Source of the DNA: a bacterium | Lineage (GTDB): Bacteria; Krumholzibacteriota; Krumholzibacteriia; G020349025 | NCBI GenBank assembly: GCA_031362565.1 | Contig: JANLSU010000088.1 | Span: 1 to 64,000, forward strand | DNA: 64,000 bases | Direction of reading: 5' to 3' | Shown here: piece by piece, positions 42,001-45,000 of the stretch | How the letters are laid out: every line of letters begins with the position of its first letter | Numbering within the stretch: the first letter of the stretch is position 1 | Position numbers: made by a program

Positions 42001-45000
42001 TGAACGTCAGCTTGTTCGGGCTGGGCTACGTGGGATGCGTGTCGGCGGCGTGCTTCGCGCGCGGCGGCCATCGTGTCCTGGGCGTCGACGTGAACCCCAC
42101 CAAAGTGGACCTGCTGAACGCGGGGCAAAGCCCGATCGTCGAGAAGGACGTCGGGGCCTTCATGCTGGACGCCGTGAACGCCGGCAAGCTCCGCGCCACG
42201 ACCGACCCGCGCCAGGCGGTGCTCGAGTCCGATGTCTCGCTCTTGTGCGTCGGCACACCCAGCAAAGCGAATGGCGCCCTCGACCTGTCGCACATCTGGG
42301 GTGTGGCGGCACAAATTGGCGTCGCGCTGCGCGACAAGCCAACGCCGCACGTCATCGTCATCCGCAGCACGGTCATGCCGGGAACCGCCGACCGGGTGCG
42401 TGAGATCGTCCAGCAGGAGTCGGGCAAGACGACGGGCTTCGCGGTCGTCGTGAATCCCGAGTTCCTACGCGAGGGCACCGCGGTCGCCGATTTCCTGCAT
42501 CCGCCGTATACGATTTTGGGCGGCGAGGATGCGGCAGCACTCGATCTCGTCGCGGCGTTGTACTCCGACCTGGAGGCACCGCTGCACCGCGTGCCGACTC
42601 GCGTCGCCGAAATGGTGAAGTACGCCAACAACGCCTTCCACGCCACCAAGGTGGCATTTGCCAACGAAGTCGGTAATCTCTGCAAAGAGATGGGCATCGA
42701 CAGCCATCGCGTCATGGATCTTTTTTGCCAGGACACGAAGCTCAATCTGTCGCCGTACTATCTGAAGCCGGGATTTGCGTTCGGCGGTTCCTGCTTGCCG
42801 AAGGACGTGCGCGCCTTGACGAGCCGGGCCCGCGAACTCGACGTGCCGACGCCGCTCCTCGACAGTTTGCTGCCGTCCAACGGGCTGCAAGTGAAGCGCG
42901 TCGTGGACCAGCTTCTGCGCTGGAAGGCACGCCGCCTCGGCTTCCTCGGCCTGTCGTTCAAGGGCGGTACGGACGATCTGCGCGAGAGCCCGATCGTGGA
43001 AGTCGTCGAGACGCTGCTCGGCAAAGGCTACGAGGTCAAGATCTACGATTCGAACGTCTCGCTCGCGAAACTCTTCGGCGCCAACCGGGAGTACATCGAG
43101 AAGGAAATCCCGCACCTCGACCGGCTCATGTGCGCGAGCGTCGCCGAAGTCATGGCGCATTCCGAGGTTATCGTGATCGGTAACCGCAGCGACGAGTTCC
43201 GCCAGGCGCTCGAACTCGTGCGGCCCGACCAAAAGGTGCTGGACTTGGTGCGCATCGCACCCGAACGGCCTGCGACCGGGGACTATCATGGAATCTGCTG
43301 GTAGCGCTGCCGTGGGCCTCTCCGGCGCGGTCGCGGCGGTAGGCAGCGACAGCCGCGGCGGCGTGCTGCTCATCGTCGAAAACCATTCGGTGCCGGCCGA
43401 CCGCCGTGTTTGGGGCGAGGCGCAGTCGTTGCGGCGCGCCGGATATCGCGTCTCGGTGATTTGCCCACGTGGTACGTTCCAAGACAAAGAGCCCTTCGAA
43501 GCCCGCGACGGCGTCGCCATCCATCGTTTCGCGATGCCGTTCGACGGCAATACCAAGTTGCACTACGTGTTCGAGTACGCGTGGGCCCTCCTGGCCTGCT
43601 TTGGATTGTCGCTGCAAGTCTGGCGCACGCGTGGCTTCGATGTCTTGCACGTCGGCAATCCCCCGGACTTTTTTTTCCCGCTGGCCTGGTTCTACAAGCT
43701 TTTCGGCAAGAAATTCATCTTCGATCAGCATGACCTGTGTCCCGAGACGTATCTGGCCAAGTTTCCCGATGCCGGGAAGCGTTTCTGGTACCGTCTTTTG
43801 TCCTGGACCGAGCAACGCTCCTACCGCGCCGCCGACGCCGTCGTCGTGACCAACCAATCCTACCGGGACGTGGCGCGGAGCCGCGGCCGGGTGCCGGAGG
43901 AACGCATCTTCATCGTCCGCAACAGTCCGAACCTGGAAGTCTTCCGCCCTCTGCAACCGGATCTCGAACTCAAGGAAGGCTTCCGCTATCTGGTGACCTT
44001 CGTCGGGATCATGGCCGCGCAGGATGGCGTCGACTACTTGTTGCGCGCCGCCCATCATGTGATCTACGTCATGGGCCGGCGCGACATCCTCTTCGTGCTC
44101 ATGGGCACGGGCCCGGCGTGGGACGACTTGCAGAAGATGTGGGCCGACCTCGAACTGCAGCCCTATGTGCGCTTCACGGGGCGCATTCCCGACGGACCCA
44201 TGCTGCGCTACCTGGCGGCATCGGATGCCTGCGCGTCGCCCGATCCGCACAACCTCCTGAACGACGTCTCCACCATGCAGAAATTGATGGAGTTCATGGC
44301 GATGCGCAAACCGAGCGTGTCGTTCGACCTGAAGGAAGCGCGCTACTCGGCGCAGGACGCGGCGGTATACGTGCCCGACAACGACTGGCGCGCCTTTGGC
44401 GAAGCCCTGGTCGCATTGTTGGAGGACCCCAAACGCTGCGAACGCATGGGCGAGGCGGGACTGCAACGGATTCGCACCGAACTCTCCTGGACGCGATCCG
44501 AAGCCGAGCTGCGCGCCGCCTACGCCTACGTGCTCCATGACCGGCTCGCCACCGCTTCGGAACGCGGCTGAGGCGGGCATGAAACTCCTGCTCTTCTATA
44601 CGCACGATTACTGGTTGCGGCCGTTCGAAAAGTCGGTGCCCGAGGCGCCCGACCGCAGCGATGAAATGACGGCCCGCGACGCCGTCGTGGCGCTCGTGCA
44701 TGTCGAAGCGGCGGATCCGGCCGAGCATGCCAAACTCGTCACCAAGGCCATCAAACAGATCAAGTGGCTGGCCGGGAAGTTCGCGACCCGGCGCATCGTG
44801 CTGCATTCGTTCGCCCACCTCGCCACGACGCGCGCCACGCCTGCAGAAGCGGCAGCCTTGTTGGAGGACGCACGCGCCCGGCTGGTTGCCGCCGAGTTCG
44901 AAGTCCAGGTGACGCCGTTCGGTTACTTCAACGAGTTCCGCTTGCATGTCGCCGGCCCGTCACTCGCCAAAGTCTTCGTCGAATTGTGAGGTCGGATGGC

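Follow-up and report, generated by a model that had tools for sequence, protein, structure and literature searches.

A stand-alone archaeal-type ThrRS editing domain with lysine at the amine-binding glutamate position in a bacterium of the Krumholzibacteriia

The archaeal editing domain and its described relatives

The editing domain at the N-terminus (NTD) of the archaeal threonyl-tRNA synthetase (ThrRS) shares its fold with the D-aminoacyl-tRNA deacylase DTD, and its catalytic group is the 2'-OH of the tRNA (PMC4491819). The catalytic water is placed by the side chain of P. abyssi K121, and activity suffers severely in the K121M variant; E134 grips the alpha-NH2 across subunits, and the variants E134A and Y120A/E134A retain Ser-over-Thr specificity (PMC4491819). 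The same source assigns a role to Pro80-His83 in the active-site loop, and reports that archaeal domains hydrolyze Gly-tRNAGly faster than Ser-tRNAThr (PMC4491819). Phe117 stacks on the adenine, and in DTD a Gly-cisPro motif is essential (PMC3845328). U73 is regarded as a requirement of the archaeal domain (PMC11295145), and U73 of tRNAGly has been raised as a hazard for Gly-tRNAGly (PMC8762117).

Free-standing copies of this domain (tRNA-Thr-ED, Pfam PF08915) were described by Mukai et al. (2017; PMC5424206; Text S1 and Fig. S4) as widespread in prokaryotes. In the bacterial branches of that figure, with labels assigned to branches from its machine text, Lys or Arg occupies the position of M. 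jannaschii Glu135; Thermodesulfatator atlanticus is among the listed organisms. The remaining residues of the pocket are described in Text S1 as well conserved, and the activity proposed for the stand-alone proteins is hydrolysis of aminoacyl- or hydroxyacyl-tRNA (Mukai et al., 2017). Stand-alone tRNA-Thr-ED with Lys or Arg is thus an already published family and not a new one, and the genome-wide survey's note was right to suspect that this supplement might list bacterial members. At the family level, and as far as Text S1 and Fig. S4 go, the protein described below differs in nothing from those branches, with which it shares the editing domain alone, the absence of an anticodon domain, and Lys at the Glu135 position. 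Our literature search, with subscription papers mostly outside its scope, found no assay of the Lys/Arg clade.

The same domain occurs outside ThrRS in SepCysS-linked tRNA-Thr-ED and in SepRS-ED fusions, which mostly keep the Glu or the serine motif and sit with SepRS/SepCysS (PMC5424206; PMC8762117). Stand-alone deacylases can also guard against pathway products (PMC13149037); those are AlaX-type proteins with clustered genes, whereas the tRNA-Thr-ED gene studied here is not clustered.

A 136-residue protein with the archaeal editing-domain fold

The window is the whole stretch of DNA that was analyzed, the first 64,000 nucleotides of contig JANLSU010000088.1 (assembly GCA_031362565.1). On its forward strand, an open reading frame at 44579..44989 encodes a 136-aa protein with the archaeal ThrRS editing-domain (DTD-like) fold, in agreement with the survey's description of a stand-alone archaeal editing domain. 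That this is a real gene is supported by its PF08915 match, by a GAGG (44570..44573, +; a putative ribosome-binding-like site that overlaps the stop of the upstream gene) located 5 nt 5' of the ATG, and by a GC3 of 0.81 that resembles that of the neighbors (0.79-0.84). The PF08915 match spans residues 1-134 and scores 123.9 bits (cut-off 30.2) at E 6.2e-36, and the family occurs once in the genome. Among NCBIfam models, similarity is confined to the first ~130 positions of those for archaeal ThrRS and Ser-tRNA(Thr) hydrolase, and the protein scores 39.4 bits where the cut-off for archaeal ThrRS-ed / Ser-tRNA(Thr) hydrolase is 362; it lies far below both NCBIfam cut-offs, which were made for whole proteins.

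The AlphaFold model (pLDDT 95.8) superposes on the P. abyssi NTD with a TM-score of 0.93, and its structural matches reach Z 23 for the archaeal NTD as against 15-16 for DTD; the solved structures of this fold above Z 12 are all tRNA deacylases or their homologs. Only PF08915 clusters were returned from the ESM Atlas. The family profile matches the archaeal ThrRS editing domain, as the survey had found, with E 1e-29 rather than the 6e-20 obtained there from a different alignment. A weak profile match to PDB entry 8YVB (E 0.0055) did not recur among the structural matches listed.

With the archaeal ThrRS editing domain (PDB 1Y2Q, 2HL1, 4RRF, and 4RR6; PRK03991 and PRK14938), the protein aligns at Z 21-23 and an rmsd of 1.2-1.7 A over 132-136 residues, and the two have in common a FAHL loop, a PFG motif, and a modeled cross-subunit site. 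They differ in that identity is ~25%, that K121 is replaced by Asn, E134 by Lys, and Y79-P80 by His-Ser, and that a 100/99 branch lies between them. Archaeal ThrRS-ed / Ser-tRNA(Thr) hydrolase also has a fused anticodon-binding domain, whereas anticodon-binding and catalytic domains are both absent from the 136-aa protein, which is encoded between a GT4 glycosyltransferase gene and tag. No fused form of the K/R type was found among 7,999 scored proteins of 288-2000 aa, in which all six matches were ThrRS with K121/E134; this is weak evidence against fusions elsewhere. With DTD1 (PF02580) and ATD the protein shares a free-standing DTD fold (Z 15-16; ATD 13) and a residue other than Lys at the K121/Met position, yet it matches PF08915 and not PF02580 at E 1e-4, and its loop is HSFAHL and not of the SQFTL type.

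Modeled as a homodimer, the protein scored 0.92 against 0.01 for the best control, with 100% of contacts agreeing between runs and pLDDT >=94; the score mark is one reached by 20/30 solved pairs and 1/23 single chains, and as the archaeal dimer has already been solved, the model may pass by likeness. In the model, K131 reaches the other subunit, contacting its His80 and Phe78.

Pocket residues and distribution of the stand-alone clade

Alignment to the P. abyssi NTD places the active-site loop HSFAHL (archaeal YPFAHL) at 44804..44821 (+), with H80 at the position of P. abyssi H83, and the PFG motif of the adenosine pocket at 44915..44923 (+), with F114 at that of the adenine-stacking Phe117. 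Asn118 (44930..44932, +) falls at the position of Lys121, which is Met in DTD, and Lys131 (44969..44971, +) at that of Glu134; the survey had assigned both residues to the same positions. The Lys/Met difference at position 121 was reportedly once proposed as a chirality switch. The survey had further called K121 and E134 substrate-site residues, but they are not simple specificity residues: E134 holds the alpha-amine, yet E134A keeps specificity, and K121 positions water (PMC4491819). For this reason, "another substrate" can reasonably be inferred, but does not follow from the two changes by themselves.

A search returned 595 homologs, and, as reported earlier, the best 120 are nearly all (114) exactly 136 aa long, at 57-93% identity. 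In the query and these 120 relatives, position 118 is Asn in 117, Thr in three, and His in one, and position 131 is Lys in 121/121. The tight 136-aa family with N/T and K that the survey had recognized therefore stands for the best 120, but forms a single sub-branch within a larger clade. Representatives clustered at 50% identity gave 392 matches, of which 150 were listed; 18 of the 150 carry K121/E134, and 47 full-length stand-alone proteins were hand-picked from them. These 47 have Lys (29) or Arg (18) at position 131, and Leu (17), Cys (12), Asn (11), or another residue, never Lys, at position 118. A scan of GTDB genomes gave at least 563 confirmed stretches; in the best 80 loci, position 131 is Lys in 80/80, and position 118 is Asn in 71, Thr in seven, His in one, and Ser in one, a count that is biased by one scan pattern having covered position 118. 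In 25 loci that only the Pfam model detected, position 118 is Asn (20), Leu (4), or His (1), and position 131 is Lys (16) or Arg (9). Lys at the K121 position was thus found in none of the 47 representatives, 80 GTDB loci, and 25 Pfam-found loci. The conservation of Lys or Arg at position 131 where K121 has been lost, while position 118 varies, points to selection rather than decay.

The stand-alone clade keeps F114, G115, A79, H80, L81, E43, and D46, while the Y120 position is free (F/S/T/V/L/Q). It also has a signature of its own, comprising a helix stripe, K59-W63-K67 (44753..44779, +; identified by conservation), and H76-S77: in the 47 representatives these residues are present in 37 (K59), 45 (W63), 46 (K67), 46 (H76), and 44 (S77), and the stripe is present in 80/80 GTDB loci. 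The same columns in the 18 K121/E134 proteins are mostly Glu, Asp/Glu, and Gln at the stripe positions, with Tyr (18/18) and Pro (18/18) at positions 76 and 77; as these 18 were chosen by K121 and E134, only columns other than those two form a comparison. The listed contacts of the modeled dimer interface do not name K59, W63, or K67, and the stripe may form a tRNA-binding surface. Compared with Text S1 of Mukai et al. (2017), which calls the pocket residues other than Glu135 well conserved, F114, G115, A79, and H80 are kept, but the position of Lys122 (K121 in P. abyssi) is not Lys here, nor in a homolog from T. atlanticus that may be the one in their tree. Text S1 makes no mention of the K59/W63/K67/H76/S77 signature.

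G126-P127 of the 136-aa protein lines up exactly with the Gly-Pro in the DTD encoded by this genome, and is present in 114/121 close relatives; Asp or Glu is found there in most of the clade. A DTD-like Gly-Pro was rejected as a trait of the clade, as P127 is present in only 13/80 GTDB loci and 3/47 representatives.

In a tree of 85 rows, 69 stand-alone rows are split from the K/E rows at 100/99, and three stand-alone rows with N/R lie on the K/E side; the tree is midpoint-rooted, and its root gives no direction. This T. atlanticus homolog (N118/K131) falls in the same 51-row branch (95/94) as the 136-aa protein. The best 80 of the at least 563 GTDB stretches belong to Nitrospirota, Desulfobacterota, KSB1, Planctomycetota, Bacteroidota, and Krumholzibacteriia. 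Distribution is patchy: the gene was counted in 3/6 other genomes of the family, as the survey had stated, and in 0/34 in the rest of the class, and carriers make up 5/151 and 24/201 genomes in two other phyla, each figure including a center genome chosen as a carrier. Desulfacinum hydrothermale is a cultured carrier. A viral origin was considered and rejected, as the 136-aa query found no relative in viral contigs.

Relative to Text S1 and Fig. S4 of Mukai et al. (2017), and as far as these show, the new elements are that K121 is lost throughout the clade, the signature made up of K-W-K and H-S, and the modeled cross-subunit Lys, together with the exclusion of DTD, ThrRS, and SepCysS complementation set out below.

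Genomic context and candidate functions

The genome's own ThrRS is of the bacterial type with HSLAH and CEGPH present, as the survey had noted of its N2 editing motifs, and the genome also encodes one DTD and two tRNA_edit domains. Across carriers, the ThrRS editing motifs are intact in 30/30 loci from 29/30 genomes, the ThrRS of the 30th carrier having internal stops, which excludes the complementation of an editing-dead ThrRS. Replacement of DTD is likewise excluded, as DTD is kept in 24/24 Desulfobacterota carriers, compared with 34/36 non-carriers (a sample of 36 from 177), and in 3/5 carriers compared with 88/146 non-carriers of the second phylum. No SepCysS link was found, TIGR02539 giving no match in 35 carriers (0/35) but being found in two control methanogens; in this the proteins studied here differ from the SepCysS-linked forms. 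The context tests take away three known roles without indicating another, and the presence of the gene beside DTD and an editing-competent ThrRS suggests that the job of the clade is probably a third one. Lactate permease, taken as a proxy for lactate, is present in 6/24 carriers and 5/36 non-carriers, which include kin that are not independent, and was not found in the three carriers of the own family searched; the proxy is uninformative.

The gene lies 8 bp behind a GT4 glycosyltransferase gene (43288-44571, +), itself preceded by one for a nucleotide-sugar dehydrogenase (42000-43304, +), and its stop is 6 bp from the gene for DNA-3-methyladenine glycosylase I (tag; 44996..45619, +; TIGR00624 above cut-off). 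The latter does not adjoin the gene in three related genomes (G001, G005, and G006). No real neighbor family occurs in more than 19 of the best 80 GTDB loci, and nothing is kept across phyla: the commonest families, PAS/kinase modules (19), SpoU (14), NIF3 (12), inositol monophosphatase (11), and gamma-glutamyltranspeptidase (8), are mostly lineage-bound. No aminoacyl-tRNA synthetase family was found among 113 flanking open reading frames scanned; the neighbor scan used greedy picking of reading frames, with many picks lacking a family, such that some true neighbors will have been missed. A promoter scan of 39800-46000 found no sigma-70-like site, and terminators were at chance level.

We tentatively favor the possibility that the 136-aa protein is a homodimeric trans-deacylase assisted by RNA, in which the charge of the amino pocket is reversed and whose substrates are acyl-tRNAs that lack a free alpha-ammonium or that bear a carboxylate. 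A76 would be bound in the conserved adenosine pocket, and the tRNA 2'-OH would activate water, as in the archaeal domain and DTD. In place of the E134 carboxylate that grips the alpha-amine in archaea there is a Lys or Arg, contributed by the partner in the dimer model, and K121, which positions the water, has been lost; one basic group would then be retained in the pocket, now in trans, and the counter-ion for the alpha-ammonium would be removed. This charge swap would spare Gly-tRNAGly, the tRNAGly of the own genome having U73, as do 17/17 carrier tRNAGly genes; the favored substrates would be alpha-hydroxyacyl- or N-acylated tRNA, or an acyl-tRNA with a carboxylate. Consistent with deacylation are the fold (TM 0.93, Z 23), the kept residues F114, G115, H80, L81, E43, and D46, the prior occupation of the known jobs (ThrRS motifs, DTD, and SepCysS, as above), and the naming of hydroxyacyl-tRNA as a candidate by Mukai et al. 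(2017). Gene, fold, residue mapping, clade, conservation, modeled dimer, and coexistence with DTD and an editing-competent ThrRS are computational results, and catalysis, tRNA binding, the charge swap, and the substrate class are inferred from them. Against the favored reading stand the unchanged Ser-over-Thr specificity of E134A and Y120A/E134A, the lack of a conserved neighbor in the 80 loci, and the little that the lactate proxy gave. Among the literature matches listed for deacylases of such species, none named hydroxyacyl-tRNA or lactyl-tRNA, and a part for them in cells is hypothetical. The clade could also be weak or non-catalytic, given the severe effect of K121M on archaeal enzymes (PMC4491819). 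A broader form of the favored reading, which we hold to be doubtful, would make the Lys/Arg clade a separate class of translation quality control that clears acyl-tRNAs without a free alpha-amine (alpha-hydroxyacyl such as lactyl or glycolyl, or N-blocked aminoacyl) and that occurs across many bacterial lineages, most of them anaerobic; K/R131 of the partner would substitute for K121, and recognition of the acceptor stem by the K-W-K helix would make up for the missing anticodon domain.

Pocket side chains need not set the substrate, since specificity survives E134A and Y120A/E134A, being attributed to the backbone and RNA (PMC4491819). On this ground the protein could be a back-up editor in trans of Ser-tRNAThr (and of small amino acids) that assists the N2 domain of ThrRS, damage to the N2 cysteine being one possible occasion, with K131 taking the role of K121, although we consider this unlikely. 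All three tRNAThr of the own genome have U73, the base thought to be needed by the archaeal domain, as do 29/29 tRNAThr genes from 14/14 carriers, and Ser-tRNAThr is by that measure a possible substrate; however, U73 is equally general in non-carriers (14/14), with tRNAThr recovered in each group from 14 of 30 genomes and by a query that itself contained U73. The intact ThrRS motifs of 29/30 carriers and the freedom of the Y120 position also argue against such an editor, and an unchanged enzyme would attack Gly-tRNAGly too.

A role away from tRNA would fit the missing anticodon domain, the loss of K121, and the new invariant surface: with its adenosine pocket kept, the protein might hydrolyze or bind an adenosine-containing metabolite, such as an acyl-adenylate or CoA ester, or serve as a non-catalytic partner through its K59/W63/K67 surface. 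Its scattered metabolic neighbors, including an acyl-CoA thioesterase directly upstream in one genome, are compatible with this role, but no enzyme neighbor recurs across phyla, every solved structure of this fold above Z 12 is a tRNA deacylase or a homolog of one, and the fold borrows catalysis from the tRNA 2'-OH (PMC4491819), which small ligands may not supply; on balance the role seems improbable. A second D-aminoacyl-tRNA deacylase, perhaps for D-Asp or D-Glu with the side chain bound by Lys/Arg, is less probable still. The non-Lys residue at the K121 position and Ser77 resemble DTD, and G126-P127 matches the Gly-Pro of the own DTD in register, but the Pro is rare in the clade while Gly-cisPro is essential in DTD (PMC3845328), and DTD is not displaced in carriers.

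It is very improbable that the protein works in an exopolysaccharide pathway as a member of the upstream operon, since its closeness to the GT4 gene here, its place directly behind a nucleotide-sugar dehydrogenase in G001 and G005, and glycosyltransferase or epimerase neighbors at a handful of distant loci (L029, L043, and L058) are set against unrelated, lineage-specific neighbors in most of the 80 loci, and the three related genomes, being kin, do not count as independent cases. The sugar-dehydrogenase link is confined to close relatives and not kept in other phyla, and the dehydrogenase and GT4 are probably not functional partners of the tRNA-Thr-ED gene.

The clade is a described branch of the DTD fold that exists beside DTD and an editing-competent ThrRS, and the copy at 44579-44989 adds no substrate clue of its own. 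As the protein is small and well modeled and has cultured carriers, the question of its substrate would be cheap to test. Were that substrate a hydroxyacyl- or N-blocked tRNA, the clade would represent a proofreading activity for which the literature searched offered no enzyme, and it could be a tool for, or an obstacle to, genetic-code expansion with hydroxy acids.

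Sequence surroundings in the window and the host ThrRS

On the reverse strand lie two tandem paralogues of ~1,147 aa each (33340–36786 and 36602–40042); a Pfam scan of one of the two identified a C-terminal FlgD Ig domain as its sole family, leaving ~1,000 residues of that protein without a Pfam family. On the forward strand, a single run within 45616–50503 encodes a nucleotide-transporter-like/HEAT protein (903 aa) and a cNMP-binding protein, together with a 564-aa ORF without a match in Pfam or NCBIfam. Further along, a DUF2442 ORF (53413–53667, reverse strand) adjoins a forward-strand gene (53814–57227) whose dimethylformamidase-beta-like product, 1,137 aa in length, carries Ig and FlgD domains.

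A run of 20 G (51219–51238) falls within a membrane-protein ORF. A second ORF, read in a different frame and encoding a spermidine synthase domain (PF01564), overlaps the first; the pair occupies 50525–51556 and 51379–53394 on the forward strand. The two ORFs look like a single gene broken by the homopolymer, through either sequencing error or phase variation.

The ThrRS of the same genome (contig C85, 10248–12074, reverse strand) is short (~607 aa), starts immediately ahead of the N2 editing motif, and apparently lacks the N1 domain.

Gene neighborhoods in other genomes

In G300, an acyl-CoA thioesterase gene precedes the stand-alone gene (locus L147, C155:2000–14000), a pyruvate kinase gene adjoins, and a cluster encoding lactate permease, a LUD-domain protein and an FAD-oxidase lies a few kb away; this arrangement occurs in one of 24 carrier genomes. 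In KSB1-type genomes the stand-alone gene is 5′ of genes for the bacillithiol biosynthesis protein BshC and a PIG-L deacetylase, and in several Planctomycetota it follows a gamma-glutamyltranspeptidase gene (loci L015, L020, and L059 for these two contexts). Both contexts touch thiol metabolism, and each is lineage-bound.

Arg-type members

One genome, G369, encodes two Arg-type copies (L099 and L110). A small stand-alone group, comprising L108 (from G334) and the homologs P0243 and P0272, combines N118 with R131, lacks the K-W-K helix, retains the archaeal GHP motif or a near form of it, and is placed in the tree with the K121/E134 proteins. This group may have acquired the same charge change independently, or it may be an intermediate.
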